The translations under genes were made by a program, and so were the position numbers. This document shows, in pieces, positions 7,466 through 64,000 of a stretch of DNA of 64,000 nucleotides. Under the pieces are notes generated by a model. It worked only from the letters and a program-made list of their open reading frames with translations. It did not search any database and was not told where the DNA came from. The DNA comes from Isurus oxyrinchus. Lineage: Eukaryota. The stretch covers positions 126,356,001 through 126,420,000 of the forward strand of contig JANJGN010000014.1 in the NCBI GenBank assembly GCA_026770705.1, written 5' to 3'. The stretch's first letter is position 1. Each line of letters opens with the position of its first letter.

Positions 7466-7966
7466 GGCACTGAGTGTGGATTTCAGAATGTGACAGGAAC
7501 AGCAGTCCGAGAAACGTTTTATGTCCCAGAGATACCTGTAATCCTGGGTGCATACAATAGATTAGCTGTCCTAGGAGTCAGACTGGAGACTTAGGTTGTA
7601 GAAACAACTAAGACTGAGCCTGTTTTCAGCACATAGGGAAAGAACAGATGGTCCCAGCATAGATAGGAGGGAAGGTCCCTGCCTGGGTGAAAATAGGGAC
7701 ATACGATGCATGTACCTGTTACCAGAGATGCCTGTTTAATGTAAACCTATATGTTGATGAGATCAGAATTTGGAGAATGTTCTTGTATGTGACCAATAAT
7801 GTATAAATATGCTGAACATTTGTAATTTAGCAGAGTGCTATCTCAAGCTGCATTGAGATGGTTCTCTTCTTGTATTTGCTTGAATAAACGATCATGACCT
7901 GTACCTGAGACTCCTGTGGTCCGTTTGTCAAAGTTACCACATCAATTGCTTCTCCCTTCTCCACAG

Positions 7967-27119: not shown

Positions 27120-27509
27120 GGGCAGAATTTTATGGGCTGAATTTGTCATCCCGCCCCATTCAAATTTTCAGGAAGGGAGAGGTAGGAGGAAGTGTTTGCG
27201 AGTTGATGCTCAGCCTCTGCGAGGTAGAGGTCAGTGCGCCAGACAACAACAGCACCACCCTTGTCAGCGGGTTTAATGACAATGTTGGGGTTGGACCTGA
27301 GACCTCACTTCCTCCTACCTCTCCCTGGACCATGACCCCACCACTGAACATCAAGCCATTGTTTCCAAGACTGTCACTGACCTCGTCTCCTCTGGAGATC
27401 TTCCTCCCACAGCTTCCAACCTGATAGTCACCCAAACTCAGACGGCCTGCTTCTACCTCCTACCCAAAATCCACAAACAGGACTGCCCCAGTAGACCGAT
27501 CGTGTCAGC

Positions 27510-29027
27510 TTGCTCTGCCCCACGGAACTCATTTCTCATTATCTTGACTCCCTTCTCTCTCTCCTTGTCCAGTCCCTTCCCACCTACATCCGTGATTCCT
27601 CTGAGAGGTTACGTCACATCAACAATTTCCAGGTCCCTGGCCCCAACCGCTTCCTCTTCACCATGGACATCCAATCCCTCTACACCTCCATCCCCCATCA
27701 GGATGGTCTGAGGGCCCTTAGCTTCTTCCTCGAACAGAGGCCCAAACAATCCCCATCCACCATTATTCTCCTCCGTCTGGCTGAACTTGTTCTCACACTG
27801 AACAATTTCTCCTTCAACTCCTCTCACTTCCTCCAAATAAAAGGTGTGGCTATGGGTACCCGCATGGGCCCCAGCTATGCCTGTCTCTTTATGGGGTATG
27901 TGGAACATTCCTTGTTCCAGTCCTACTCCGGCCCCCTTCCACAACTCTTTCTCCGGTATATCGATGATTACTTCGGTGCTGCTTCATGCTCTCGTTGGGA
28001 CTTGGAAAAATTTATTAATTTTGCTTCCAATCTCCACCCCTCCATCATTTTCACATGGTCCATCTCTGACACTTCCCTTCTCTTCCTTGACCTCTCTATC
28101 TCGATCTCTGGTGACAGACTGTCCACCAATATCCATTACAAGCCTACCGACTCCCACAGCTACCTCGACTACAGCTCCTCACACCCCGCTTCCTATAAGG
28201 ACTCCATCCCATTCTCTCAGTTCCTTTGCCTCTGTCGCATCTGTTCCGATGATGCTACCTTTAAAAACAGTTCCTCTGACATGTCCTCCTTCTTCCTTAA
28301 CCGAGGTTTTCCACCCACGGTTGTTGACAGGGCCCTCAACTGTGTCCGGCCCATCTCCCGCGCATCCGCCCTCATGCCTTCTCCTCCCTCCCAGAAACAT
28401 GATAGGGTTCCCCTTGTCCTCACTTATCACTCCACCAGCCTCCCCATTCAAAGGATCATCCTCCGTCATTTCTGCCAACTCCAGCATGATGCCACCACCA
28501 AACACATCTTCCCTTCACCCCCCCTGGTGGCATTCCATAGGGATCATTCCCTCTGGGACACCCTGGTCCACTCCTCCATCAAACCATACTCCTCAACCCC
28601 CACCTATGGCACTTCCTCATGCCCACGCAAAAGATGCAACACCTGCCCCTTCACTTCCTCTCTCCTCACCGTCCAAGGGCCCAAACACTCCTTTCAAGTG
28701 AAGCAGTATTTCACTTGCATTTCCCCCAACTTAGTCTACTGCATTCGTTGCTCCCAATGTGGTCTCCTCTACATTGGAGAGACCAAACGTAAACTGGGCG
28801 ACCGCTTTGCAGAACACCTGCGGTCTGTCCGCAAGAATGACCCAAACCTCCCTGTCCCTTGCCATTTTAACACTCCAACCTGCTCTCTTGCCCACATATC
28901 TGTCCTTGGCTTGCTGCATTGTTCCAGTGAAGACCAATGCAAACTGGAGGAACAGCACTTCATCTTTCGACTATGCACTTTACAGCCTTCCGGACTGAAT
29001 ATTGAATTCAACAACTTTAGATCTTGA
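27510..29027 (+). CDS. PLE RT core + Cys-rich linker + GIY-YIG endonuclease (open frame, N-terminally truncated)
   Basis: 505-aa ORF: MDIQSLYTSIPH, QIKGVAMGTRMGP, RYIDD, CPRKRCNTC linker, NLVYCIRCSQCGLLYIGET...RFAEH...HF, PSGLN. Not an autonomous gene because the N-terminus is missing. Confidence 0.9.
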   Translation: MLCPTELISHYLDSLLSLLVQSLPTYIRDSSERLRHINNFQVPGPNRFLFTMDIQSLYTSIPHQDGLRALSFFLEQRPKQSPSTIILLRLAELVLTLNNFSFNSSHFLQIKGVAMGTRMGPSYACLFMGYVEHSLFQSYSGPLPQLFLRYIDDYFGAASCSRWDLEKFINFASNLHPSIIFTWSISDTSLLFLDLSISISGDRLSTNIHYKPTDSHSYLDYSSSHPASYKDSIPFSQFLCLCRICSDDATFKNSSSDMSSFFLNRGFPPTVVDRALNCVRPISRASALMPSPPSQKHDRVPLVLTYHSTSLPIQRIILRHFCQLQHDATTKHIFPSPPLVAFHRDHSLWDTLVHSSIKPYSSTPTYGTSSCPRKRCNTCPFTSSLLTVQGPKHSFQVKQYFTCISPNLVYCIRCSQCGLLYIGETKRKLGDRFAEHLRSVRKNDPNLPVPCHFNTPTCSLAHISVLGLLHCSSEDQCKLEEQHFIFRLCTLQPSGLNIEFNNFRS

Positions 29028-29547: not shown

Positions 29548-32500
29548 TATAGAGCCCCCCTGACCCCCTCAGATGATGAATCAGTACTCCTCCATGGGGT
29601 ATGCACAGAGAGTGGCAAAGGTGCAAAATGTACTCTGGATGGGGGCTTCAATGTTTATCACCAAAATTGGCTCAGTAGCACCACTACTGACCGAGCTGGT
29701 CGAGTCCTAAAGGACGTAGCTGCTAGACCGGGTCTGTGGCAGATGGTGAGGGAACCAACAAGAGGTAAAAACCTAGTTGATCTCATGCTCACTAATCTAC
29801 AGATGCATCTGCCCATGACAGTATTGGTAGGAATGACCATGCACAGACTTTACGGAGACAAAGTCCCAACTTCACATTGAGGATACCCTCCATCATGTTA
29901 TATGGCACAATCACCATGCCAAATGGGATAGAATTTGAACAGATGCAGCTACTCAAAACTGGGTAGCCATGAGGTAATGTGGGCTGTCATCAGCAGCAGA
30001 ATTGTATCCAACCGCAATCCATAACCTCATGGCCCAGCATATCACCCGCTCTATCCTTACCACCAAGCCAGGGGATCAACCATGGTTGAAATAAAAAGTG
30101 CAGGAGGGCATGCCAGAAGCAGCAGTAGGCATCCCTAAAAATGATGTGTCAACCTGGGGGAGCTACAACATAGGACTACTTGCATGCCAAACAGCATAAG
30201 TAGCATGCAATAGACAGAGTTAAGTGATCCTACAACCAATGGATAAGAGCTAAGCTCTGCAGTGCTGCCATATCCAGCCATGAATTGTGTGGACAATTAA
30301 CCAACTAATTGGAGGAGGAAGCTCCACAAATATCCCCATCATCGATGAGAGGCGAGCCCAGCGCATCAGTGCAAAAGATAAGGCCAAAGCATTTGAAAGC
30401 ATCTTCAACCAGAAGTGCTGAGGTGGATGATCCATCTTGGCCTCCTCTACAGGTCCCCAGCAACATCGATGCCAGACTCCAGCCAATTCGATTCACTCAA
30501 TGTGATATCATGAAACGGCTGAAGAATGGGTTACTGCAAATGTTATGGGCTCCAACAACATTCTGGCGATAGCACTGAAGATTTGTGCTCAAGAACTAGC
30601 TGTGCTCCTAGCCAAACTGTTCCGGTATAGTTACAACACTGGCATCCACCTGGCAATGTGAAAAATTGCCCAGGTATGTCCTGTGCACAAGAAGCAGGAC
30701 CCGGGCAATTACTGCTCCATGAGCCTTCTCTCGACCATCAGTCAAATGATGGAAGATGTCATTGACAGTGCTATCAAGTGGAACTTGCTCAGCAATAACC
30801 TGCTCACTGATGCTCAGTTTGAGTTCCACCAGGGCCACTCAGCTCCTAATCACATAATATCCTTGGTCCAAACATGTACAAAAGAGCTGAACTCCCAAGA
30901 GGTGAGGTGAGAGTGGCTGCACCTGACATCAAGGCAGCATTTGACCGAGTGTGGCATCAAGGAGCCCTAGCAAAACTGGTGTCATTGGGAATCGGGGGAA
31001 TGATCTCCACCGATTTGAGTCATACCTGGATAAAGGAAGATGGTTGTGGTTGTTGGATCTCACTCAGCTCAGTCCTAGGGCATTGCTGCAGGAGTTCCTC
31101 AGGGTAGTGTCCAAGGGCCAAACATATTCAGCTGCTTCATCAATGGCCTGCATAAGGTCAGAAGTGGGAATATTCACTGATGATTGCACATTGTTCAGAT
31201 ACTGAAGCAGTCTGAGTCCAAATGCAGCAAGCCCTGAATAGCTTTCTTACTTAGGTTGATAACTGGCAAGAAACATTTGTGCCACACAAGTGCCAGGCAA
31301 TGACCATCCACAATAACCATCATTCTTTGACATACAATGGCATTACCATCGCTGAATCCCCCATTATCGTCAGCTGGGCAGTTACCATTGCCCAGAAACT
31401 GAACTGGACCAGCTATGTAGATACAGGTTAGAGGTGTTGAACTCACCTTATAACTCCAGAAAGCCTGTCCACCATCTACAAGGCACAAAACAAGAGTGTG
31501 GTGGAATACTCTCCACTTACCTGGATGAGTGAAGCTCCAACAACATTCAAGAAGCCTGCCACCATCCAGGACAAAGCAGGCCACTTGATTGGCATTCCAT
31601 CCTCCACGTTAAACATACACTCCCTCCAACGCTGGTACAAAGTGACAGCAGTGTCTACCATCTGAAAGGTTCTCAAAATTCCCACATTTTCCATATCATC
31701 AACAAGGATATGACTTTTGGACTTTTACCTGAAACCAGACAACGAGAGGAGACAGAATACGCATTCTTCCCTTTAAAACAATCAACATGAAACTAAAGCC
31801 CATCAAAATCTTGCATAAATAATTGTTACTAACTACTAAGGCAGGAAGACAACAATCAATGCAAATTATGCGAGCCCATCAATGCTCCACATATACAATG
31901 GCTTTCAGTTCAAGACTACTTACGATGGCAGGAAGACAACGATAAACATCATGCGAGCCCATTAAAAACAACGAGACAACAATCACATGGGGAAGCCCAC
32001 CAAAATCAAACAAAGAACTAACCTTGATTTGGACTGAGATAAGAAATTCGAAAAAAAACTAGTATAACTGGGCCAGGCGATCTGAGTTTTTGAAAGCAGT
32101 TTTGGGCAGTGAGCAGTTGGGAGCGGTTTTGCAGTATGTAAACAGGGAGCTGAGCCAAGGGGAGGAAGGAGATCTGGGGATTTGCAGGCAACATCATGGC
32201 GAGGGGCACGGGGTGGCAGGCTCAACTGAAGACAACAAGGCTGCAACCGCAGCCCTCCTTGAAGATCGACCACCCACAACCGCGCCCTCCACTCAACTGA
32301 AGAACCTTCGCAGATTCCACAATCCAGGACCATGTGGGGACAGCAGGCCTCAGAGGACAGAAAGAGCGTACCCCAAAACTGCAACCGGCTTACCTGGCTG
32401 GATTTCGAACTGTCAAGGAACCCTGGTGGTGAGCATGATCCCTGATCCTTCCTGGTTCAATTTAGTTAGTTTTTGGGGGTGAGACAAGGGTAAGGGGATT

Positions 32501-33090
32501 AATAGCATGATTTTCCCTCATTATGCCATGTGTTCCCCATTCTTAATTAAGTGTACTTTGTAAGTCTCTATAATCTCAGTGTAATCCTAATGTTATAAGT
32601 TCATTTGTGACTTCAATAAACCCAGTTTCTTTTCTTGCACCAAAACCAGTTGTCTGCTGCACTTTGTCACAACCCCCAAATAAGTCCGAGGTCTAGAACC
32701 CATGGAGTGGGAGCGATTCGAACCGCTCAGAAGTCAGAGGTGGAGCTGACACACACCACCACCCTCTACACATCTACAGGATGCACTGCAGCAACTCACC
32801 AAGGCTCCTTCAACCTGCAACCTTTGCCACCTGAAAGGACAAGGGCAGCAGGTACATGGGAACCTCATGACCTGCAAGTTCACCTTCAAGTCACACACCA
32901 TCCTGACTTGGATTTATGTTGCTGTTCCTTCACTGTCACTCCCTAACAGTGCTATGAGTGTACTTACACCACATAGACTGCAGCAGTTCAGGAAGGCAGC
33001 TCACCACCACCTTCTCCAGGGCAATTAGGGATGGGCAATAAATGCTGGCCCAGCCAAGTGACATCCACATCCCATAAAAGGATAAATACA
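29548..33090 (+). mobile_element. APE-RT LINE (same family as 21.3-23.5 kb), interrupted by a solo LTR
   Basis: Endonuclease remnants (W.G.FNV.H, PTRGKNLVDLMLTN), DIKAAFDRVWH, EYSPLTWMS; resumes at 32771 and ends in the family 3' tail. Confidence 0.85.
31663..32770 (+). mobile_element. Solo LTR
   Basis: TG...CA termini, 4-bp TSD CATC (31659-31662 and 32771-32774), AATAAA near 32615; second copy at 48293-49472. Confidence 0.9.
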
Positions 33091-48062: not shown

Positions 48063-49590
48063 TGGCTCATTCAGTAGCATACTTGCCTCTGAGTTAGATG
48101 CTTATGGATTCAAACCTCAAACCAGGTTTGAAGCATATATTCCACATTGAAAATATTTTGTATTATTAGCCGTGTCATTCCTGAGATGAGAAAGCGAACC
48201 AAGGTCAGGTTGGCCTGTTCTGATGATTTCGAAGGATGTTAAAGATCCCATGACACAACTTGAAGGACGACAAGGAGTTTTCCTGGTGAACTTGTAGGGG
48301 GTGGTGGTGTGTGTCAGTTTCACCTCTGACTTTTGAGTGGTCCGAATTATTCCCACTCCCTGGGTTCTAGACCTTGGACTTATTTGGGGGTTATGACAAA
48401 GAGCAGCAGACAACTGGTTTTGGTGCAAGAAAAGAAACTGGGTTTATTGAAGTCACAAATGAATTTATAATATTAGGATTACACTGAGATTATACAGACC
48501 TACAAGTACACTTAGTTAGGAATGGGGAACACACGACATAACGAGGGAAAATCACACTACTAAGCCCCTTACCCTTGTCCCACCCTCAAAACCTAACTAA
48601 ATTGAACTAAGAGAGGTCAGAGATCATGCTCACCAACCAGGGTTCCTTGACAGTTCGAAATCCAGCCAGGTAAGCCGGTTGCAGTTTTGGGGTACGCTCT
48701 TTGTGTCCTCTGAGTCCTGCCGTCCCCACGTGGTTCTGGTCTGTGGAATCTGCAAAGGTTCTTCAGTTGAGTAGAGGATGCGGTGGTGGCCTTGCTGTTT
48801 TCGGTTGAGTCTGCCACGCTGTGCCCCTCGCCATGATGTTGCCTGCAGGCCTGCAAACTTCCAGATCTCCTCCCTGCTTAAACTCTGCTTCAACCGCTCC
48901 AAAACTGCTCACCCTCTAAAACTGCTCACCCCCTTCATAACTGGTGGCCCAGTTATACTGTTTTTTTGAATTTCTTATCTGAAACCAAATCAAGTTTAGT
49001 TCTTTGTCTGATTTGGGCTTCTTTAGGTGATTGTTGTCTCGTTGTTTTTAATGAGCTCACATGATGTTTATCATTGTCTTCCTGTCCCCATAACTAGTCT
49101 TGAACTGAAAGCCTTTGTATATGTGGAGTATTGATAGGTTCTCATAATTGCATTGATTGCTGCCTTCCTGCCTTAGTAGTTCATAGCGATTATTTATGCA
49201 AGATTTTGATGGGCTTTAGTTTCGTGTAAGATGAAGTCTTTCTCTGGGTTGATTGTTTTAAAGAGAAGAATGTGTATTCTGTCTCCCCTCATTGTCTGGT
49301 TATAGGCAACAATCCACACTGTACTCAACAAGCCTGGGCATGTCCAGTCCCAGGCCTTCATGGGCTGCAGGGTTCTATACTTAACTCAGCAGTTGGGTCC
49401 TCTGCCATAAAAGTCCAAAAATCATACACTTGTTGATGATATGAAAAATGTGGGAATCTTGGGAACCCTTCAAACTTGCCATCTTCCATTCCTCAGTCAA
49501 AGCAGATTCAATGGCCATTTTTCCCATTTCCTGGTTTAGGGATCATTATTTGTGCAAATTGGTTGCTGCATTTGCCGACGAGACGGCAGT
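48063..49590 (+). mobile_element. Deu-domain-type SINE split by the solo LTR
   Basis: tRNA-like head and GATGAG...AACCAAGGTC...AAAGATCCCATG core; resumes after 49476. Confidence 0.6.
48293..49472 (-). mobile_element. Solo LTR (same family as 31663-32770)
   Basis: TG...CA termini, 4-bp TSD AACT (48289-48292 and 49473-49476). Confidence 0.9.
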
Positions 49591-49810: not shown

Positions 49811-50081
49811 TGTTGTAAATGTTGTTTGGTCTCACTAACAGGTCTAGAGGCTTGTATAGGTGAACATAAACCATTTATTTTTAAGCCATGACTATATGCA
49901 TAGCCTGCATGGGTGCTGTCTCCATGCTGGCTTCTTCCAGACCCCCGACCACGCACAGTCTAGCATCATGTGCCTCTCTACGTCACACCATGGTCGTGCT
50001 GTTCTCCAGCCCCACGTTAACCCTTGCTCTGCCCTTATACTACAATGTCACGCTGCTATCCCTTAAAGACATGTTACAACA
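49811..50081 (-). mobile_element. Gypsy 3' LTR (271 bp)
   Basis: Inverted termini TGTTGTAA...TTACAACA. On the minus strand it is preceded by PPT AAAGAAAAGGGGA (50082-50094) and an integrase-tail motif RLRSGRIVKPPDHL (50140-50190). AATAAA on the minus strand near 49875. Confidence 0.85.
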
Positions 50082-50504
50082 TCCCCTTTTCTTTATTTCT
50101 AAAGAACTTTCTCCTCTTCAAACAAAGTATAACTCTTTACAATACAATCAGATGGTCTGGAGGCTTGACAATTCTTCCAGATCTCAGCCTGTTATGTTTG
50201 GAGGAATGGTAGTCGCAGTTGCTTTGGGTTGCATTTGCCAATCTGACATTGAAATTATAGCACTCTGTGTTTTTGTTACTTAGTTGTTTCCATTTGATTC
50301 GCTTTTTGCGTTCCTTCGTATTGCATTTCTCTTTATCAACAACCCATCCGCTTTGCTCGGACACCGTGGGCTTGTCCCGTTCCTTCTGAAAGGAAAGTTC
50401 ACTCTGTTCATTTCTAGAGTGGACGTGGATTTTCTTTTTCCGTGGAGTGCACCATGATCTTCCTGAACATTGACGTTTCAAATGTGGAACTTTCGTTTCC
50501 ACTC

Positions 50505-51515
50505 ATTGCACAATTTCAACCAAATATTTGTTTACTCTTTTATTTTCCAATTCTTTTGCAAGCTTATGAACCTTTTCATTCAGCTCAGCCACTATTCTGG
50601 TGAATTCAGTTGTCTTTGTATCAGAGTGATTTGAGGAATTCTTACATTCACTTAACAATTTCACCTGGGCATTCAGTTCCTTTCAGAGTCTTTCTTCCAC
50701 AGTCACTGATTGCTCCTTAGATTCTTCCAATGCATATGTTAGATCCTCAACCTGTTCTTTGAATTTTCCTTTTCTGCTTTTAAAGGCTGAGTATGGTCTT
50801 CCATTTTGCACATCTCATCTTTCATGCTCTTCTTGAAGTGAGTGACACTCCAGTGTTCTCATCAGTTCTTATTTTCCATTAGCAAAGTCATCTTTCGTCT
50901 GTGAAAGTTCGTTCTCTACACTGAACATTTTTCCCTTAGCAGAGCCTCATTCCTGAGTGCTATCTTTCAAGGCCATATTCTTTGATTTTACTTCTGCATT
51001 TGTTTCCGACATTCTCGTTTCTTGATTTTCATTACAGTCATGTCACTTTTCAATGACTCAGTTGTTCTCAGTATGTTTGTATCCAATGCCTTTCTTTCTA
51101 ATTCCTTGCACTTCAGTGTCAAATTTACATTTTCCAATGTTATTTCTGTCTTTCCTTTCTCTGACTGCAGCAGAGCTTTGTCCTTGTCCTTCATTTTGGT
51201 CTCACTGTTGGCCAGGTCTGTCTCTGGCAAAATCTTAACTTGTTACAGTTCTGCAGTTGTGCTACTCATGGCTTCATCCATTCAGAGCTTGGAGAATTCT
51301 ATGGCTTTTCCTTTCAATGGTTTTCCCATTCAGTTGGTTCTTCAGCTCTTCAGTCTCTTTCTTGTACCTCTTGGCTTCCTCCTGGAATTTAGAACATAGC
51401 TGAATCTTCTCTGCCAACTGGTTCTTCAGTTTGTTCGGGGTGACATTAAATTCATTTTGCTTCTCTTCATAATTTTTCAGAGGAACAAACTTTGACCTGA
51501 GGGATGCTTTTAACA
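50505..51515 (-). pseudogene. Disrupted coiled-coil ORF: TPR-like segment preceded by a UACA/RAI14-like segment
   Basis: Manual translation KDEMCKMEDHTQPLK...KEQVEDLTYALEESKEQSVTVEERL*KELNAQVKLLSECKNSSNHSDTKTTEFTRIVAEL..EKVHKLAKELEN parallels vertebrate TPR as recalled (KEEVSRLEEQMNGLK...[60 protein letters not shown]...EKIGRLEKELEN). Upstream SKFVPLKNYEEKQ resembles UACA-family repeats (weaker). Confidence 0.65.
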
Positions 51516-52480
51516 TGTGAAGGTTAATGTGAACGGTGATGTGGAGAATAAAGGGTTAATGTGATTACTATGGACTATAAAGTGAGTTATGCTTGTGAAA
51601 GCTGTTCCCTTTGCTGTATTTTTCCGTAACCTTTAGCTTGCACACTTAGCCTGTCTTTTCCAGATGTGTTTTGCTAGAGATGAAGTCACTGTAGCTGATA
51701 AGCTGTTTTTGAGCTGTTTTTTGCTTTTCTTATCTTCTATACTTTCCCACTAGCTTGCAGACAAAACATGCCTGACCAGCTTTAGCTATATTGTGTATAA
51801 ATGTATGTTATTGTACCTGCTATTTGAGGGATTCTGTAGCTGAATCTTTCCCCTGCATATTCAAAATAAAGATTTCCTAACATTAACCAACTTCGGACAC
51901 TAAGTGGCATATGCCTAAGCAACTTGGTGTCACAACCAAGGTCCATTGACAGATCCAGTTAAAGGAAAGACCCTATGGACAGCAGGCGCTTAAGTGAATA
52001 TCGTTTATTCTATACCACCTGTGTTCAGTTAGGTCTGACTGACCACTGGGGCCTCCTTGGAACCTCAGGGGTCACAAACTTTTGAATAGAGTTGGAGTGG
52101 CAGAAGGTAAGAGGGAAAAGGTCAAGAATAATGATGTGAGACAACGTTATGTAGGGTATCACCGACAGCTGGCAAACAGCTGGGGGAGGGGGGAGGGACG
52201 AGCAGGTGGGAATACTTAAATAGTGTTCCCAAAGGTGAACAGCTTTGTGCATAGTATCACCGGCAGCTGACAGAAAGCTGGAGGAAGAGGGCAAAACGGG
52301 TACCTCTTTAAGGTGAAGAGCCTCACGATTGTTAGTCACCCAGACAGGGTCATGGTGGGAATAATTAACGGGTATTCCCAAAGATGAAGAGCCTTGTGTA
52401 TAGGGTCGACCAAAGAAGAGACAGGTTGCAAGCACAAGGCAGGCAAGAGCCAGTCGTGTTACTGAACATAACCTGAAAGT

Positions 52481-53815
52481 ATGGCAGTTAAGCAGGTGGG
52501 CCCTCAGGAGCCCATCACTGAATACCTGCTAGGCAAATATGCAAAAGTAAAGAATAATATGATAAAGGATGACTGGATCCCTGAGTGGATCACAGACCAT
52601 CTAAAGGATCAGTGGCAAAAACGAGTGAAGGGCAAGACGGAAGAGGGAATTGTGGCCCCGCACCATGCACACATGAAGTTGTGCGAATGAGCAGCGTGGC
52701 TTGTGGAACCTAGAAGGAAAGTTAGCTGAGGCCAAAAAGGCAGGTGCGCAATGCGCAGCAGTTATCAGCAGCAGGGGACCTGAGAAGAAGGAGGGCAGTG
52801 ATAATGGAAGATTGGTTGGGATTAGTTAGAGCAAGAAGCTCTGGAATGGGGCAATGGGGCCAGGCTGAGGGCCTGTCAGAATATTACCCTGGGGAAGATT
52901 CAGGGAGCCCCTTTGAGGATTCAGAGGAAGGAACTAAGGGAACAGCTGCCACACTAAGGAAGGGTAGATGCCACTGGATGGCTAAGGCCGCTCCTAAAGA
53001 AATTAGAACAAGGCAAGCATCAGATGAGGCAGGGCAGAGGATACAATTGACCACCTCAGTCCATTTCCATTCACCCCAGGGGAATAACAATTAATGTTGA
53101 GTGATTTAGCGCCACTGTAGGTGGCATTTTGGAATACTGAATTTTGGAACATGATAGAGGGAGTGACAGATGTTGATCAAATGGACGTAGACATACTGGT
53201 AAAATCAAAGTGTCCCCGCGATGTAGGGGAGAGGTGCCAGCCAGGTAGACAGGCCAGCAGATGGGCAACAGTTGCCAACTGCACAAATGAACCAAAGTAT
53301 CAGGTCTTTAAGACAGCCATCACAGGCCAGCTTGGGGGAGGACAAAGTAACTGGGGAGCAATAGCAGTTGTCACCCAGAAAGCTGGGGAAAGTACGACCG
53401 AGTACATAGAAGTTCAGGGCATATGAGGAGTTCTCGGGGCTTCCAAACCTGGGCAGGTGTGATGCAGTATTCCTGAAAATGCTGAAGGAAGGTCTCAGTG
53501 GGACTCACCAAGTTATACTGGGAATGGGAATTCTGGTAGGAAACATGTATACCGCCGTGGTGAGCTGGGTGAGTGAGGTGGATAGGAAGTGAAAGAAGAA
53601 GATGGTAGTGGCTGCAGTTGGAGGGAATGAAAGATGGTTGCTTTAACTGTGCTAAACCAGGGCACATGGCCCAGTATTGCCACAGTGCTAAAGGCAAGGC
53701 AGGTCAGGGGAAAGGCAAGTCTGCAGTGGAGTGCAAGAACTGTGGGGAGGTAGGCCGCATGAAACAGCAGTGTTATGCGAATGGAGGAGATTGCGAGGGG
53801 CAGGCCCCTTGGTAA
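52481..53815 (+). pseudogene. ERV gag (frameshifted)
   Basis: MHR-like VTQKAGESTTEY; two zinc knuckles CFNCAKPGHMAQYC and CKNCGEVGRMKQQC (second has H replaced by R). Confidence 0.85.
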
Positions 53816-53974
53816 TGGGATCAGGGTAAGGAGCAGGGGGTGGGATGCCATCGGTCCCATTCCTCGCCTCTGAACAAATGCTGGACATAATCAAACTGGT
53901 CTCAAAAACAGACAATTAGGTTACCTCAGCCCCCTCAGGCAGCTCGAGCGATTCCTGAATGTTAGCAGCAGCAC

Positions 53975-55045
53975 TGTCAGGGGGCCGGCAGTGTAGGATG
54001 TTGGTGGATACTGGAGTATATTTATTGATCACCGACCAACCGCTACCAACTACTAATATAACCATGTATATAACTGGGGTGGGGGAAGATCAGTTAAAGC
54101 AAGAAGGAGTGAGTCTCAGCGATTAGGATTAGGGGGAATATTAATACCACTCCATTTCTGGGTATGCCTGAATAATAAAGGGTCAATATTAGGAATTGAT
54201 ATGTTGAGGGAAGCAATCCTGAATGGGGGAAAGGTATCTGGCGTTGTAGACGAGTTGCAGTGAAGCACAGCCAATGACCAAAAGCAGTAACACAACATGC
54301 CACATGGGTGACACCCAAAACGCAGGATTGTTCAGGTGAGGGGATGTACGAGTTTGTTTGCTCCAGTTCCCCAAAGTAACAGTACTGTGGGAGAGCTGAC
54401 ATTCCATCCATACCATGAAAGTGTGGGCCATCGTCCGCACAAGCAGTACGCTATCAAATCAGAAACTGATGGTTCAGGCGAGAGTACAGGATTTATTAAC
54501 CGTGGGCATAATAAGGGGAACTACATGTATGTTCCATTCAACTGTATCACCTATCAGGAAGCTGGATGGCACCTGGTGATGTATAATAGGTTACACGCTT
54601 TTTAAAAATGTATACCCAAACTGCACCCGAGCGTGGCCAGACCGGCCACAATATCAAATGGGCTAAACCCAGAGCACAAGGTATTTACAGTTTCAGATAT
54701 TTCACTCGGAATCACAAGTTAGATTTGCATTTACTGTAGGAGGTAATCAGTATACATGGACCCGGTTGCTGCAAGGGTTCCACAGCAGCCCATTCATATT
54801 TCATCAGGCCATGGTTCAGGCCCTAGCTGGTATAGATTTAACTCTGTACAAGAGTACAGTATTACAGTACGAGGATGACTTTCTGATTGCATCTACCCCG
54901 GGGTGGGGACACTGTGGAGCACAGGTGCATACGGTGCAGCCCCTATACTGATGGGGATATAAATCAGTCCAACTAAAGCACAGGTTTTTTGGGGAAACTT
55001 GCATTACCTGAGCACACAATCACTCAGCGACATAAGGCATTGACA
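53975..55045 (+). pseudogene. ERV protease + reverse transcriptase (disrupted)
   Basis: MLVDTG near 54000; PIRKLDGTW; FAFTVGGNQYTWTRLLQGFHSSPFIFHQ; VLQYEDDFLIAS. Confidence 0.88.
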
Positions 55046-55054
55046 GGTGATGTC

Positions 55055-56150
55055 ATTTAGGAGTTTGAGGACAGCTCTCACTCAGCGGTCATGTTCTACC
55101 TTCAAGTAACTGTGTATGACAATGAGTGTCCATATGGCATATTACTCCTTCCAGAACTATCAGGGTTTCAGGCACCTTTCTTTGGATTATCTCAGGTTCA
55201 GAAGCAATTCCGAATGGTTACTTGTTAAAACAATAATGACCAAATGTGGTGATAAAAGTAGCTAACAATCTGGATTCTTTGTCCAGAGACAATTGCCAAA
55301 AGATGCTTTTAGCGTCCACGTTAGTGAGGAAGGAGCTTTTTGCTAATTTAGAGAGACATTCATCCACTGATGCCATCAGGGGTATCTCGTACTGCACAGA
55401 CTTGTTTAATTGAGCCAATTACCTGATTCTAATTGAACCATAAGACTTTGGTACTGTGAACAGTACAGGGCACCACTTCATCAGTCTGATTACTGGAGAG
55501 TTGACCCCTTGTGTTAGCATCTGTTCAATCTCTCGTGACTTTTTCTGAGAATAGGTTACAGACCTTTGTCACTGTGAAGAGATATATTGGCTTAGCAATC
55601 TACTTTTAGGGTTCTGAGATATTCTGTTATCAATTTCCTAAGCCTGAAGATAGGGATGGAAATTCATTCCCGATGAATACCTCATTAGGCTGCTCATCAC
55701 CAATTTCATCAACTTTGTAAAGAAACCTCAGTTGCAAACATGCTGATCTGCTCAGTAACAATGACTCCCAGATGTTTATCACATACAAGGGTTCCACAAT
55801 TTCTTTATGCTTCCATCATAATCTTGCCAAGTATTGGCCTATTATTTTTAGTGATGCCCCTCTTGGACCTTACAACTGGAGGATGGCTGTAATGTGATAT
55901 TGTTAAGCAATTCACTTCATCAGTTAACACTGAAACACCTGCGCCAGTGTCTACCTTGAAATCTGTGGGGTGATCATCAACTTGTAATTTTGTGCTCCAA
56001 AAATTATTTTCTGCTTCATGCTTCATTAATGTCTCCCAAGAAGGACACTTGTTTCTTCTGTGGCTCTTGTTGGATTTGACTTTGTTCCATTGTTATCTCT
56101 TTCTTTCCTTGAGCTATAGGAAAATTGGATCTGCAGATGACTTGGGCAAG
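55055..56150 (-). pseudogene. Gypsy gag-end/protease/RT fragment (paralogues at about 57345-58620, 59440-60810, 61630-62120, 62940-64000)
   Basis: VICRS...FLGDI...FWSTKLQVDDHPTDFKVDTGAGVSVL; SVDECLSKLAKSSFLTNVDAKSIFWQLSLDKESRLLATFITTFGHYCFNK.PFGI. Confidence 0.9.
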
Positions 56151-56200
56151 TCTCGGTTTATGTTGGCTATTGAAGTATCAAGGTGTCACGCTCTGTGTGA

Positions 56201-56258
56201 GGGGATATAGCTCAGTGGCAGAGCATTTGACTACAGATTCAAATCCAGGTGTTCCCCT
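56201..56258 (+). pseudogene. tRNA-Cys pseudogene (internal deletion)
   Basis: GGGGATATAGCTCAGTGGCAGAGCATTTGACTACAGAT, then jumps to TCAAATCCAGGTGTTCCCCT. Confidence 0.85.
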
Positions 56259-56546
56259 ATTTTCATAAGCAATGTGGAAAAGATCTATACTTTCCATTAT
56301 ACAGCATGGGTGAATCCTTCAGATTTCTGTGAACCATTGAAATTGTCCAGCCCAGATGGCTGTGGAGGCTCAATTATTGAGGTGGAAAGATTTCTAGATG
56401 CCAATGACATCTAGTTAGTGCAGGACATTGGTAGTAAGGGAGAAAGTCAGCCATGATATTGTTAAATGACAGTCCAGCTTTGAGAGTCTGAATGGGATTC
56501 CCCGATGACTGCTGTTGAAAAGTTCTAGGTTAATACTGTCATGTAA

Positions 56547-56617
56547 GGGGGTGTAGCTTAGTGTAGAGTACTTGATTACAGTTGTAAGTGTATTTGGTTC
56601 AAATCCATGTGCCTCTT
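56547..56617 (+). pseudogene. Decayed tRNA-Cys copy, slot B (paralogues at about 59047, 61240, 62550)
   Basis: GGGGGTGTAGCTTAGTGTAGAG...GGTTCAAATCCATGTGCCTCTT aligns to tRNA-Cys. Confidence 0.75.
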
Positions 56618-56860
56618 TGTAAATGCCTGTGTGGAATGTTTACAACTTCCTTTCTCCAAAATTCAGAGGAATGATCAACAATTTCAACACTGATCAAGGG
56701 CATTCCAGTCCATTCTTCTGCCTCCTGAGCAGAGTGATCAAATTCATCCCAGTCACTTCCTATTTACCCCTTGTCCTATAAATTATTCTAATTTTATTAC
56801 ATGTCCAATCCTCGCTTGAAATCTGCTCTTGAGCTCTTCAAAGAGCAAGTGATCATGGAA

Positions 56861-56930
56861 GGTTGTGCAGATCAGTGGAAGAGCATTTGACTATAGTTTA
56901 AGAGGTCCTGTGTTCAAATTCCAAAGCCCA
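56861..56930 (+). pseudogene. Decayed tRNA-Cys copy, slot C (paralogues at about 59368, 61563, 62871)
   Basis: CAGATCAGTGGAAGAGCATTTGACTATAGTTTAAGAGGTCCTGTGTTCAAAT; the 3' end runs into Gypsy sequence. Confidence 0.75.
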
Positions 56931-58677
56931 TTTGGTTAAACCAACCTACATCCACAGTGAAAGCTGTGAACACATTGCTCTACTCATCTTGCACAGGAAC
57001 AACCAGAGAATTCTGTGAAAATGAGGGCATTCCCATCCAATTTGTTGGGGTTAGGTTCTTTAACAGAGATATCCCATTCAGTTTCATCCATTGTGTTTTC
57101 CTCTTGTCCAGGAAATTATTCCCCTTTCGGTATTTGTACACATCTCGCTTAAAATCTGTATTCGGCCTAATATGTCTCGTTCGAATCCAGGTGGCTCTTT
57201 GTAAATACATGGGAAGAATGTTAATAATTTCCTTTATCCAAAATTCAGAGAAATGATCAAAAATTTCAACATTGATCAAGGCATTCCAGTCCATTCTGCT
57301 GAATTCTGGCTACTGAGCAGAGAAATCAAATTCATCCTAGTCAACTCAACACGCACAATAACAAGCAGAGAATTCTGTGAAAATGAAGGCATTCTTTTCC
57401 ATTGTGTTGGTGTTTGGCTCTTTAGCAGAGGTGTCCCATTCAGCTCTATCCATTGTGCTTTCCTCTTGCCCAGGAAATTATTCTCCTTTAGGTATTTGTA
57501 CAAACATGTCTTGAAGTCTGTATATGGCTGAAGAGTTTTATCGCAAGTTTTGCGAATTCACATTTGTCATTCAATTTAAATCTGCTTCTTGTAGGACATT
57601 GAGGACTGCTCTCATTCGATGGTCTCGTTCTTCCTTCGAGAAACTGTAAATGAGAATGTTATGCATATTGATTATTACTCCTTCCATAACTTCCAGGATC
57701 TGAAGAATCAGTCCTTGGATTATCTCAGGTGCAGAAGCAAATCCGAATGGTTACTTACTGAAACAACAATGATGAAAAGTGGTGATAGAATTAGTTGACT
57801 ATATGGATTCTTTGTCCAGAGGCAACTGCCAAAAGATTCTTTTAGCATCCAAGTTGGTGAGAAGGAAGCTTGTTTGCTAATTTGGAGAGACATTCATCCA
57901 CTGATGCATCGGGGATATCACCTGCTCTATTGACTTGTTTAATTAAGCCAAGTTACCTGATTCTAATTGAACCATTAGACTTTATATTGTGAAAATTCCA
58001 GGACTCCATTTCATCTGCCTGGTTACTGGATAGATGACCCCTTGTGTTATCATGTGTTTAATTTCACTATTGACATTTTCTGATTTCTTGCTGCGAAGAG
58101 AAATATTGCCATATCAATCGGCATTTAGTGATATTCTGCTTTCAGCTCTCCAAAGGCTGAAAACAGGGACGGAAATTCATTCCTCATGAATATTTCATTT
58201 GGCTGCTAATCACCAATTTCATCAACCTTGAAAATGAACCTCAGTTGCAAACAAGATGATCTGCTCAGTAATGATGACACCTGGATGTTTATCATGTACA
58301 AGGTTTGCAGAATTTATTTATGTTTCCATCTTAATCTTGCCAAGTGTTGTTCTTCCTGGACCATGTAACTGGAGAATGTCTGTAATGTGATATTGTTAAG
58401 CCATTCACTTCATCAGTTAACATTGAAATACCTGTGCCAGTGCCCACCTTGAAATCTCTGGGGTGATCATCAACTTGTAATTTGGTGCTCAAAAAATATC
58501 TTCTGCTTCATTAAGCCCTCCGAAGAAGAACATTAGTTTCTTCTGTGGCTCTTCCACCTCTTGGTTTGGCTTGTTTCCGTTGGTATCTGTAATCTATGAG
58601 AACATTGCATCTGCAAACTATTGCCCAATCACAATTCCTGCCGCTACTGACCTTTCAAGGTGTCAATGTCATTGTCA

Positions 58678-58749
58678 GGGGATGTAGCTCAGTGATAGAT
58701 CATTTGGCTGCAGATAAAGAGGTCTTTGGTTCAACTCCAAGTATCCCCT
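58678..58749 (+). tRNA. tRNA-Cys(GCA), probably pseudogenised
   Basis: Full length with GCA anticodon, but mismatches in the D stem (GCTC/GATC), the D loop GG and the anticodon stem. Confidence 0.6.
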
Positions 58750-60863
58750 GCCTTTCATAAGGAATGTGTGTATGCTTTCCTTTATCCAGCATGGATGAAC
58801 CTTTGGAATTTTTGTGAACCTTGGAATCATCCAGCCCAGAGGGTTGTGCTATCACAGTGAACGAGGTTGATAGATTTCTTGATTCCAATGACATCAAGTG
58901 ACATAGGTTTAGTGTGGGAAATGAGCAGTAAGATAGAAAGACAGCCATGATATCATTAATTATCCGTCCAGCCTACAGAGTTTGAAGGTGTGCCCCCTGC
59001 TCCTATGTCTGCTTTTGAAATTTTCAACTTTAATACAGTCAAGTAAAAGAGTGTAGATCAGTCATAAAGTATTTGCCTGTAGATTAAAATATGTCTTGTA
59101 CAAATCCAGGTGCCTCTTTGTAAATGCATGTGAAGAATGTTTACAATTTCCTTTATCCATAATTCAGAGAAATGATCAAAAGCTTCATCTTTGATCAAGG
59201 CATTCCAGTCCATTCTGCTGACTTCTGGCTCCTGAGCAGAGTGATCAAATTCGTCCCAGTCATTTCCATTTTACCCCTCGCCCTGTACATTATTCTCTTT
59301 TTAGCATATGTCCAATCATCTCTTGAAATCTGCTCTTTAGCTCTTCAAGGACCAAGTGATCATGTAAAGTGGTGCAGATCAGTCGTATTGCATTTGACTG
59401 TAGTTTCAGTGGTCCTTTGTTCAAATTCCAAAGTCCATCTGGTTAAACCAACCTACATCCACAGAAGTGAAAGCTGTGAACACATTGCTCAACTCAACAT
59501 GCTCAGGAACAACCAGAGCATTCTGTGAAAATGAAGGTATTCTCTTCCATAGTGTTGGTGTTTGGCTCTTTAGCAGAGATGTGCCATTCAGCTCCATCCA
59601 TTGTGCTTTCCTCTTGCCCAGGAAATTATTCTCCTTTAGGTTTTTATACAAAAAAGTCTTGAAGTCTGTATGTGGCTGAAGAGTTTTATCGCAAGTTTTG
59701 CAAATTCACATTTTTCATTCAATTTAAAACTGCTTCTTGTAGGACATTGAGGACAGCTCTCATTCAATAGTCTTGTTCTTCCTTCGAGAAACTGTAAATG
59801 AGAATGTTGCACATATTGATTATTACTCCTTCCATAACTTCCAGGATCTGAAGCATCGGTCCTTGGATTATCTCAGATGCAGAAGCAAATCCAAATGGTT
59901 ACCTGTTGAAACAACAATGACAAAAAGTAGTGATAAAATTAGTTGACAATCTGGATTGTTTGTCCAGAGGCAACCACCAAAAGATGCTTTTAGCATCCAA
60001 GTTGGTGAGAAGGGAGCTTGTTTGCTAATTTGGAGAGACAATCATCCACTGATGCATCGGGAATATGACCCGCTCTATTGACTTGTTTAGTTGAGCCAAG
60101 TTGCCTGATTCTAATTGAACCAATAGACTTTGGTATTGTGAACATTCCAGGACTCCACTTCATCTGACTGATTACTGGATAAAAGACCCCTTGTGTTATC
60201 ATGTGTTTAATTTCACTGTTGACATTTTCTGAGAGTGGTTTATGGAGCTTTCTTGTTGCGAAGAGAAATATTGCCATATCAATCGGCATTTAGACTTTAG
60301 TGATATTCTGCTTTCAGTTTTCCAAAGGCTGAAAACAGGGATGGAAATTCATTCCTCATGAATATTTCATTTGGCTGCTAATCACCAATTTCATCAAACT
60401 TGCAAATGAACCTCAGTTGCAAACAAGATGATCTGCTTAGTAATGATGACACCTGGATGTTTAGCATGTACAAGATTTGCAGAATTTCTTTATGTTCCCA
60501 TTTTAATCTTGCCAAGTGTTGTCCTTCCTGGACCATGTGACTGGAGAATGTCTGTAATGTGATATTTTTAAGCAATTCGCATCATCAGTTAACACTGAAA
60601 CACCCGTGTCAGTGCCCACTTTGAAATCTCTGGGGTGACCAGCAACTTGTAATTTCGTGCCCAAAAAATTATCCTCTGCTTCATTAAGCCCTCCCAAGAA
60701 GAACATTAGTTTCTTCTGTGGCTCTTCCACCTCTTGGTTTGACTTGTTTCTGTCGGTATCTCTTTCTTCCTGTAATCTGTAAGAATATTGAATCTGCAGA
60801 CTATTGGCCCGAATCTCAATTCCTATCCACTATTGAACTTTCAAGGTGTCAATGTCATCATCA

Positions 60864-60933
60864 GGGGATGAAGCTCAGTGGTAGATCATTTGACTGCAGA
60901 TCAAGAGGTCCTTAGTTCAACTCAGTATCCTCT
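60864..60933 (+). pseudogene. tRNA-Cys(GCA) pseudogene
   Basis: Anticodon arm intact; T stem has a 2-nt deletion and U8 is changed. Confidence 0.8.
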
Positions 60934-62172
60934 GCTGTTAATGAGAAATGTTTGTAAGTGTGTATGCTTTCCTTTATCCAGCATGGATGAACCATTGGAT
61001 TTTTTGTGAAACTTAGGTATCGTCCAGCCCAGTGGGATGTGGAGGCTCAGTCAATGAGGTTGATAGAGTTCTTGATTCCAATGACATCAAGGGACAAGGG
61101 GTTAGTGTGGGAAATGAGCAATAAAATAGAAAGACAGCCATGATATCATTAATTATCAGTCCAGGCTACAGAGTTTGAAGGTGTGCCCCCTGCTCCTATG
61201 CCTGCTGTTGAAATTTTCAACTTTAATACAGTCAGGTAAGAGAGTGTAGATTAGTGGAAGAGTATTTGACTGTAGTTGTAAATAAGTCTCATTTGAATCC
61301 AGGTGCCACTTTGTAGATTCATGTGAAGAATGTTTACAATTTCCCTCATCCAAAATTCAGAGAAATAATCAAAAATTGCAACATTGATCAAAGCATTCAA
61401 ATCCATTCTGCTGCCTTCTGGCTTCTGAGCTGAGTGATCAAATTCATCCCAGGCACTTCCATTTTACCCGTCGCCCTATAAATTATTCTCTTTTAAGCAC
61501 ATGTCCAATCATCTTTTGAAATCTGCTCTTTAGCTCTTCAAGGACTGTAAGGACTCATGTAAGATGGTGCAGATCGGTCGTATTGCATTTGACTGTAGTT
61601 TCAGCGGTCCTTTGTTCAAATTCCAAAGTGGTTAAACCACAGAAGTAAAAGCTGTCAACAGGTTTCTAAACTCAACATGCACAGGAACAATCAGAGAATT
61701 CTGAGAAAATGAAGGCATTCTCATCCATTGTGTTGGTGTTTGGCTCTTTAGCAGAGATGTCCCATTCAGCTCTATCCATTGTGCTTTCCACTTGCCCAGT
61801 TTATGTTTCCATCTTATTCTTGCCAAGTGTTGTCCCTCCTGGACCATGCAACTGCAGAATGTCTGCAATGTGATATTGTTAAGCCACTCACTTTATCAGT
61901 TAACACTGAAACACCTGAGCCAGTGCCTAGCTTGAAATCTGTGGGGTGACAATCAACTTGTAATTTTGTGCTCCAAAAATTATTTTCTGCTGCATTAAAC
62001 CATCCCAGAGAACATGTCTTTCTTCTGTGGCTCTTCCACTTCTTGGTTTGACTTCTTTCCGTTGGTATCTCTTTCTTCTTTTAATCTCTAAGAACATTGA
62101 ATCTACAGGCTATTGGCCCAAATCTCGATTCCTGTCTGCTGTTGAACTTTCAAAGCGTCAATGTTATTGTCA

Positions 62173-62244
62173 GGGGATGTAGCTCAGTGGTAGAGCATTT
62201 GACTGCAGATCAAGAGGTCCTTGGTTCAACTCCAAGTATCCCCT
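62173..62244 (+). tRNA. tRNA-Cys(GCA), structurally intact
   Basis: 72 nt. Acceptor GGGGATG/TATCCCC, D stem GCTC/GAGC, anticodon arm TTTGA-CTGCAGA-TCAAG, T arm CTTGG-TTCAACT-CCAAG, U73 discriminator. Only a short T-run follows. Confidence 0.9.
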
Positions 62245-63314
62245 GTCTTTCATAAGAAATGATTGCAAATGTGTATGCTTTCTTTTATCCAGCATGGATG
62301 AACCATTGGAATTTTTGTGAACCTTTGGATTCACCCAGCCCAGAGGGTTGTGCTATCACAGTCAATGAGGTCGATAGATTTCTTGATTCCAATGACATCA
62401 AGGGAGAAGGGGTTAGTGTAGGAAATTGGCAGTAGGATAGAAATACAGCCATGATATCATTAATTATCAGTCCAGGCTACAGAGTTTAAAATGTGCCCCC
62501 TGCTCCTATGTCTGCTCTTGAAATTTTTAACCCTAATACAGTCAAGTAAAAGAGCTTGGATCAGTGATAGAGTATTTGCCTGTAGCTTTAAATATGTCTT
62601 GTTCGAATCGAGATGCCTCTTTGTAAATGCATGTGAAGAATGTGTAGAATTTCCTTTATCCTTAATCCAGAGAAATGATCAAAAACTTCAAGGTTGATCA
62701 AGGCATTCCAGTCCATTCTGCTGACTTCTGGCTCCTGAGCAGAGTGATCAAATTCGTTCCAGTCACTTCCATTTTACCACTTGCCCTGTACGTTATTCTC
62801 TTTTTAGCAAACGTCCAATCATCCCTTGAAATCTGCTCTTTATCTCTTCAAGGACCAAGTGATCATGTAAGGTGGTGCAGATCAGTCGTTTCGCATTTGA
62901 CTGTAGTTTCAGCGGTCCTTTGTTCAGATTCCAAAGTCCGTCTGGTTAAACCAACCTACATCCACAGAAGTGAAAGCTGTGAACACATTGCTCAACTCAA
63001 CATGCACAGGAACAACCAGAGCATTCTGTGAAAATGAAGGCATTACTTTCCATTGTGTTGCTGTTTGGCTCTTTAGCAGAGATGTCCCATTCAGCTATAT
63101 CCATTGTGCTTTCTTCTTGCCCAGGAAATTATTTTCCTTTAACTATATGTATAAGCCTGGCTTGAAGTCTGTATGTGGCCTAAGTATGTTATCGCAGGTT
63201 TTACAAATTCGCATTTGTCATTCAATGTCAACACTGCTTCTTGTAGGATATTGTGGACTGCTCTCATTCGACGGTCATGTCCTTCCTTTGAGAAACTGTA
63301 AACGAGAATGACTG

Positions 63315-63568
63315 TCCTTTTGTCTATGACATCTTTTGGCAATCTCCACTTATCAATGGCACTCTATCCAGCTCAACTGTCCCATTCCGCCTTAAACCAG
63401 CCTATATTTCACCTCTTTTCTATTGTTCCTTAGTTTTGATGAATAGTCATTCACACTCAAAACATTAACCGTATTCCTCTCTGCAGATGCTGTCAGACAT
63501 GCTGACATTTTTCAGTTATTTTTGTTTTTGAACTAGATTTCCAGCATCCGCAGTATTTTGCTTTTATC
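63315..63568 (+). mobile_element. Old PLE pLTR 3' end inside the array unit
   Basis: TTTGATGAA...CTCAAAAC hammerhead remnant, CAGATGCTGTCAGACATGCTG...TTCCAGCATCCGCAG; absent from the other units. Confidence 0.75.
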
Positions 63569-64000
63569 TTAATGGTGATAAAATTAGTTGACAATCTGGA
63601 TTCTTTGTCCAGAGGCAACTGCCAAAAGATGCTTTTAGCATTCAAATTGGTGAGGAGGGAGATTTATTGCTAATTTGGAGAGACATTCATCCACTGAATC
63701 CATCGGGGGTATCACCCACTCTATTGACTTGTTTAATTGTGCCAAGTTACCTGATTCTAATAGACTTTGGTATTGTGAACATTCCAGGACTCCACTTCAT
63801 CTGCCTGGATACTGGGAAGATGACCCCTTGTGTTAGCATGTGTTCAATTTCGGTCTTGACTTTTTTTGAGTGCGTAATGGAACTTTCTAGCTGTGAAGAA
63901 ACATATTGCCATTTCAATTGACATTTAGACTTATGTGATATTCTGCTTTCAGAATTCCTAAGGCTGAAAATAGGGACAGAAGTTCATTCCTCATGAATAT

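Follow-up and report, generated by a model that had tools for sequence, protein, structure and literature searches.

The window analysed here, a stretch of 64,000 nucleotides from the shark Isurus oxyrinchus, consists of repeat-rich animal DNA and raises one question: how did coding sequence of host coiled-coil proteins come to lie on the minus strand directly ahead of the 3′ end of a Gypsy-type LTR element, and what does it do there? A first-pass annotation, made from the sequence alone, had proposed that an LTR retrotransposon captured and fused fragments of host mRNAs. Our analysis bears this out, since pieces of UACA and of the nucleoporin TPR stand in frame with the remnant of an integrase tail, and the nearest named relatives of this cassette are all shark proteins. 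We are highly confident of the anatomy and origin of the chimera as described below. The best explanation of the whole, to which we assign a probability of roughly 0.6, is a non-autonomous Gypsy derivative that took up host mRNA by template switching and carries it as filler cargo.

The general layout is the one first described: a minus-strand coiled-coil cassette runs into an integrase-tail motif, followed by a purine tract and a 271-bp LTR. The 3′ LTR (49811..50081, minus strand) has an 8-bp terminal inverted repeat with TG...CA ends and a single AATAAA at 49879. Directly adjoining it is the polypurine tract (50082..50098, minus strand), with purines at 16 of its 17 positions. Next comes the integrase C-terminal remnant (50137..50469, minus strand), made of 110 open codons and a stop, which ends in RSGRIVKPPDHLIVL and is in frame with the last of the TPR blocks (block D). 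The motif RSGRIVKPPDHL is placed 5 codons ahead of the stop and closes an open stretch of 121 codons; in letters, the tail motif reads RSGRIVKPPD, five residues before the end of that stretch. The TG...CA ends of the LTR, the poly(A) signal, the polypurine tract and the Gypsy-type integrase C-terminus are all traits of Ty3/Gypsy elements. A complete pol (PR-RT-RNase H-integrase core) is absent between 51524 and the LTR; as had been noted before, no integrase core was detected between the cassette and the tail motif in that interval, and no second LTR copy was found within the 64-kb window. The stretch is thus classed as a non-autonomous or truncated Gypsy derivative, not as a complete Gypsy element.

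The motif alone is not diagnostic of Gypsy, as it occurs in unrelated proteins too. A pattern scan of metagenome contigs yielded 26 loci, 20 of which carried the motif in frame; at 12 of these 20 (about three sequence groups) it lay no more than 10 codons from a stop, and at 7 it opened a ligase-type ORF. Long motif-ending ORFs displayed H2C2 and rve domains in all three cases tested, preceded by RT-RNase H in two of them, which indicates that the motif ends a Gypsy-type Pol and agrees with the original reading of it. A profile built from 10 Gypsy Pol ends matched the window tail with an E-value of 1.7e-6, motif included; without the motif the tail is a weak integrase match, equalled in score by 42 of 1000 shuffles. 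The cargo thus shares the frame of an eroded integrase C-terminus, to which it is fused; it is neither a separate third ORF nor a separate accessory ORF.

Two side observations concern the motif and its surroundings. RSGRIVKPP is also present in proteins of 128-133 aa with long acidic tails, encoded at all six loci from the viral collection (L001-L006, two distinct sequences); the protein of L001 had no Pfam match. The tail further includes RLRSGR (about 50170-50190, minus strand), which we take to resemble the nucleosome acidic-patch motif of KSHV LANA and IL-33, and which could make the Gypsy integrase tail a chromatin tether. A literature search on the acidic-patch motif for such a tail returned nothing.

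Upstream of the tail lie the TPR-derived blocks. The frame 51018-50140, with X placed at its five stops, was used as a phmmer query against 1.84 billion representatives and gave two matches, namely the catshark protein P0002 (GCB67842.1, 153 aa, E 4e-18) and the eel TPR P0003 (E 4.6e-4). Ungapped comparison with eel TPR resolved four collinear blocks, all on the minus strand. Block A (50823..51015) corresponds to eel residues 77-140 without a gap, shows 21/70 identities over 77-146 and contains two stops. Block B (50590..50822) covers about 230-308, with one stop and one frame shift near 50770-50790. Block C (50533..50595) covers about 338-358, has 11 of 21 residues identical and is joined in frame to both B and D. 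Block D (50470..50556) covers 413/415-441, with 20/29 identities and one stop, and overlaps the predicted ZC3HC1 clamp site. Heptad-block shuffles (500 for each block) never reached the score of A, B or D and reached that of C six times, and the five UACA coiled coils used as controls scored below the window on all four blocks. The suspected match to TPR is therefore specific and collinear, not a low-complexity coiled-coil resemblance, and its extent is about 190 residues in four blocks instead of the 100 or so first aligned by eye. Pfam and PDB searches with the read-through frame detected no TPR family, and a word-indexed search with the same frame found none among 993 candidates of 514-2000 aa, a range exceeded by full-length TPR.

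The joints between these blocks provided insights into their source. In run X23, which we guess to be RNA, a loose contig end at 50822 reads as native upstream TPR and another at 50471 continues as native TPR (both translated by hand), which fixes two joints. The catshark P0002 has joints B/C and C/D in common with the window, but not A/B. Block A crosses the exon joints at aa 85/86 and 109/110 of human TPR (a human map, not a shark one) with neither gap nor intron, which points to an mRNA source for the TPR piece. There is no indication that the A/B deletion arose by exon skipping.

The far end of the cassette derives from UACA, as the first-pass annotation had suggested. The UACA segment (51251..51524, minus strand) comprises aa about 964-1025 and then about 1185-1210 (Carcharodon numbering), with an internal deletion of ~160 aa relative to host UACA, a frame shift near 51320 and a cut at 51524. 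Its open stretch 51277-51516 had seven matches among 86 candidates: five were named shark UACA (E 3e-16 to 5e-13) and the other two were the uncharacterized basking-shark proteins P0004 and P0006. Identity of the segment to five shark UACAs ranged from 62 to 71%, and Atlas features on this stretch were generic coils only. We assume that the UACA piece may derive from one large exon, in which case it is uninformative on intron loss. Between UACA and TPR lies a coiled-coil-like linker (51051..51250, minus strand) of about 65 codons, which is common to the two basking-shark proteins. Its parent gene was found neither by Pfam nor among 104 candidates of 148-2000 aa (proteins over 2000 aa fall outside this range); Atlas features again gave generic coiled coils, with low recognition, and BLAST against UACA and TPR proteins gave no match, the best host E-value being 0.36. 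UACA and TPR are established as parents, and so is the order of the blocks.

The cassette initially delimited is real and longer than proposed, reaching 51524/51525 instead of 51515; a start at 51515 with a clean LTR insertion there is ruled out by the match running past it. At 51524, each DNA run has 59-63 contigs that depart from the window and run on in UACA-like code, showing that the break is specific to this locus. Here the cassette is adjoined and truncated by an LTR-like repeat that is not part of the element (51525..51930, plus strand) and whose own depth is 8-35x that of the flank.

Other repeats crowd the window. The interval 51525-55057 on the plus strand is a decayed retroelement, with the LTR-like repeat, a zinc knuckle at 53612 and an RT at 54670; no integrase or second LTR was seen in it, and its RT looks, in our judgement, more retrovirus-like than Gypsy-like. 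It is followed by a tandem array (55058-64000) of ~2.2-kb units, some of ~1.3 kb, with tRNA-Cys(GCA) at 58677 and 62172 and a degenerate one at 60864; the array also holds minus-strand Gypsy protease-RT pieces cut at similar places. One of these pieces (55058-56100, minus strand) is 52% identical to a Pol ending in the same motif. It was not assigned as the 5′ half of the cassette element, since it is a unit of the array. Just beyond the LTR, a repeat of ~1.1 kb (48293-49472) is the inverted counterpart of 31663-32770, to which it is 81% alike. Further away, 5084-7561 (minus strand) and 27301-29024 (plus strand) are inverted copies, 93-96% alike, with RT and GIY-YIG-like regions and open stretches of ~500 codons, Penelope-like by eye.

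Other copies of the cassette were studied through contigs of sequencing runs and annotated proteins. P0004 and P0006 have the UACA deletion and the linker in common with the window and are located on basking-shark contigs of 211.6 Mb and 250.2 Mb, respectively, whereas the true UACA of this species is on a 39.5-Mb contig. At 80% likeness, 7438, 6994 and 5955 contigs aligned to the stretch in the DNA runs X1, X2 and X9 (two of them from one sample), most being less than 95% alike. In X1, the TPR-block sites among those listed had 28-120 contigs with another letter. Depth of the LTR was 105-772x flank in the three DNA runs, and summed depth relative to flank came to 44-121 in the tail and 47-97 across TPR A-B, rising to 426-674 in the linker and 570-2795 in UACA; contig depth is not copy number, and we read these values only as dozens or more. 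Contig joints tie the LTR to the motif, the motif to the tail and the linker to block C. A depth value of 131.9 recurs in three X23 joints, from the LTR through to the linker, which are probably one contig lacking TPR blocks A-B. These two blocks are skipped in some copies, and the start of block D is kept in at least one of them (the X23 contig of depth 131.9). No joint of the linker to block A in another copy was present among the joints listed (409 further joints). Organism B (record 25) has the same insertion and the same joint of flank to LTR, with 3 differences in 455.

Collectively, these observations show that the cassette is an old, multi-copy shark family, not a chance retrocopy, and the linkage of tail to LTR is established. 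The family status that the first-pass annotation had left conditional is thereby settled, with joints shared by basking-shark and catshark proteins and thousands of contigs, instead of a single copy unconnected to this LTR. Joints shared between Lamniformes and Carcharhiniformes imply an age near or above their split, unless there was horizontal movement. This split dates to the Jurassic. The three UACA-type copies (P0004, P0006 and the window) have in common two residues that are absent from six host UACAs, and they fall on one side of a branch with support of 78/85, which is not starred and thus suggestive only.

Relatives of the family are more varied still. UACA-like sequence draws far greater contig depth than TPR, and in X1 there are 76 contigs that extend into UACA without the deletion, meaning that longer forms exist; there is probably a larger UACA-bearing repeat family beyond the TPR-bearing one. 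A different, G-rich purine tract follows the motif in 154 contigs, and a different LTR 5′ half is present in 64-70 (49942-50148), suggesting that several LTR subfamilies share the tail. As they are perhaps sister subfamilies, the 154 variant-tract contigs were left out of the case for an integrase origin.

The copy in the window is dead, and its description as pseudogenised stands: it has six stops in 431 codons, and the frame shifts near 51320, 51030-51050, 50823 and 50770-50790. The question is thus what the family carried its cargo for. We propose that the reverse transcriptase would have switched templates to host mRNAs packaged along with the element (UACA, a third gene and TPR) and so joined their sequences to it, in line with the mechanism model put forward for LTR-mediated chimeric retrocopies by Tan et al. 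2016 (PMC5131818). Host coiled-coil code would thereby have replaced at least the integrase core and become fused in frame to the last ~110 integrase codons, with the chimera retaining its own purine tract and LTR. An autonomous partner would then copy the chimera in trans, and in-frame deletions at short repeated words would whittle the cargo down. Such words are seen, at the protein level, at the internal deletions: LK in UACA, and EL and LEN in TPR. The cargo would serve as a soluble helical filler, poor in stops, through which the frame stays open up to the natural stop, and which gene was captured would matter little. Template switching, mobilisation in trans and the filler role are what we infer from this anatomy. 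So is the replacement of pol, as against insertion into a complete pol: the 5′ part of the element is lost at 51524, and any gag-protease, PBS, second LTR and target-site duplication would lie beyond this cut. That the coiled-coil cargo is mainly frame-keeping filler is, on balance, the likelier account.

The main rival to a filler is a selected element protein, in which the coiled-coil stalk oligomerises, is packed into helper particles and presents the basic integrase-tail motif for nuclear import or as a chromatin tether; any host coiled coil would suffice, but one would be needed. Every piece identified is indeed a coiled coil read in the sense direction, the joints shared between copies keep frame and no stop interrupts the 110 codons of the tail. 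In a single-sequence model, P0004 also forms one helix spanning residues 75-176 across both joints (pLDDT 84.6, pTM 0.37). However, helices are favoured by such models, an open tail of 110 codons has a 22% chance at the stop rate of this copy, and the A/G-richness of coiled-coil mRNAs (39-43% A here) could lead to capture in register on mechanical grounds alone.

Signals of selection would bear on this choice. Among the replacement joints of other copies, frame was kept in 8 of the 12 listed (12 of 75), with P 0.02 against one third; these rows were chosen by the tool and are not independent, and word-level microhomology alone could favour in-frame joints. The UACA piece diverges as random change would: it differs from six host UACAs at 16-21 of 61 residues, against a random expectation of 12-19 of 60 given 24 changes per 184 nt, a proxy, and no dN/dS, that sets the nucleotide figure of one X23 contig against protein identities to other species. 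Host UACAs differ among themselves by 5-33% in the same stretch. End branches of the basking-shark cassettes measured 0.26-0.34, versus 0.02-0.11 for hosts, that is, 2-3x the longest host branch. The three annotated relatives have open frames of 153-177 codons, and mutual identity among P0004, P0006 and the window is 57-69%. These open frames could mean selection on the protein, or merely that open copies get annotated. Taken together, we consider a selected stalk unlikely, yet the strongest competitor to filler.

A more specific proposal takes up the first-pass suggestion that the cargo affects nuclear export or import. Here the ZC3HC1 clamp site of TPR, borne on a borrowed stalk, would dock at the nuclear basket or act as its decoy, and so help unspliced element RNA to leave the nucleus or steer integration. 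Block D corresponds to about 414-440 of human TPR (an offset inferred from a heptad leucine, eel 459 = human 458), and the preprint 10.64898/2026.10.08.757499 gives aa 415-444 or 418-441 as the predicted ZC3HC1 clasp. Block D is also the best conserved of the blocks (20/29), and its start is kept in at least one copy that skips A-B. As described in the sources cited, unspliced CTE RNA is retained by TPR (PMC3258255), and the yeast basket affects expression and targeting of Ty1 (PMC5909446).

The binding data, on the other hand, argue against it. The residues reported as experimentally essential are 386-481 (ZBD2), 29-88 (ZBD1) and 450-606 (pore binding), none of which is complete in the cassette: of the ZC3HC1-binding regions only about 77-88 and 414-440 are present, and the pore-binding domain is absent, the TPR match ending at eel 441. 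A TPR construct starting at 411 is described as no longer binding. Block D is eroded in the catshark P0002 (score 48 versus 93), and its conservation may mean no more than that host TPR is most conserved here relative to eel. The effects of TPR knock-down, in the account of PMC3258255, require pore localisation, and according to PMC12120416 TPR stays at the pores of fibroblasts that have lost ZC3HC1. Owing to the erosion of D in the catshark copy and to the construct from 411 that does not bind, we rate this reading as improbable. A nuclear transport role is so far not supported, with the pore-binding domain absent and A-B skipped in some copies.

One can go further and imagine a shark Gypsy chimera whose UACA and TPR coils present a ZC3HC1-clasped TPR segment together with the basic integrase tail, plugging or jamming the basket that holds unspliced RNA; more widely, Gypsy elements of cartilaginous fish may repeatedly be selected to swap pol for host coiled coils, forming a distinct parasitic LTR class. 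We offer this as a long shot. If the TPR piece did bind the basket, a retroelement would be turning a nucleoporin fragment taken from its host against the retention of RNA.

That P0002, P0004 and P0006 are domesticated host genes of sharks is very improbable. The three annotated open frames occur in two shark orders, and cassette-like contigs are among the 149 that align in run X23 (these contigs show neither strand nor start), but each protein forms a singleton cluster, has a long branch and corresponds to another piece of the cassette, and the window copy carries six stops. Least credible is that an unrelated LTR happens to adjoin one chance retrocopy or mere low-complexity coiled-coil noise: the window has one LTR only and Pfam alone finds no TPR family, but the TPR and UACA matches are specific and collinear, and this reading is refuted by joints common to other species and by contig joints of LTR, tail and cassette, with dozens to hundreds of contigs per site.

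Filler cargo in a non-autonomous Gypsy derivative, the preferred explanation, can be compared with known systems. Several candidate classes were rejected. A LINE-made (L1) processed pseudogene would carry the poly(A) of a single mRNA and no LTR components, whereas this sequence closes with an integrase tail, purine tract and LTR and has two or three parents. The cargo is not a separate ORF3 or env-position gene, being upstream of and in frame with the stop of the integrase tail. Nor is it a functional TPR-like basket protein, given the absence of the pore-binding domain and of complete ZC3HC1-binding regions. The cassette descends directly from host TPR (about 77-441, in four pieces) and host UACA (about 964-1210, in two), but it lacks the ankyrin repeats, the TPR pore-binding domain, the TPR C-terminus and a complete ZC3HC1-binding region.

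In bdelloid rotifers, the extra ORF3 of LTR retrotransposons, which includes coiled-coil types as presented in PMC5408684, likewise adds coiled-coil coding capacity near the 3′ LTR. However, ORF3 is there described as a separate frame downstream of pol, with gag and pol both retained, whereas the shark cargo precedes the integrase stop, shares its frame and can be traced to named host parents.

Our literature search, with repeat libraries outside its scope, found no published description of this shark family. Capture of host genes by LTR elements is already known, the cases described in the cited work being young or low-copy. The shark family, a vertebrate case, combines multi-gene fusion with in-frame trimming and a wide spread across two orders. 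It is a natural data set on whether captured code acts as filler or as a selected protein, and it identifies as element cargo some shark gene models labelled 'uncharacterized' and UACA-like repeats.

The closest resemblance is to LTR-mediated chimeric retrocopies as set out in PMC5131818, with which the shark family has in common an LTR element enclosing parts of host coding sequences, descent from more than one parent gene and secondary copying with shared joints; the short words typical of joints there have their counterpart here in those seen at protein level at the internal deletions. The cases given there are young and come from flies, mosquito, zebrafish, chicken and mammals, whereas the shark family spans two orders, is represented at each site by dozens to hundreds of contigs, has its cargo joined in frame with an integrase tail and was trimmed stepwise in frame. 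Maize Bs1, as told in the same source, also fuses exonic pieces of several genes within an LTR element, with switch points common to its copies; in Zea it is present in one to five copies, and its hybrid protein is expressed. The parents of the shark cassette are all coiled coils, its copy number is far higher, and its protein is putative. With partial coding fragments of at least two host genes in the element and secondary amplification with shared joints, the shark chimera works like LTR-mediated chimeric retrocopies such as Bs1 and, on the features that can be tested, belongs among them.
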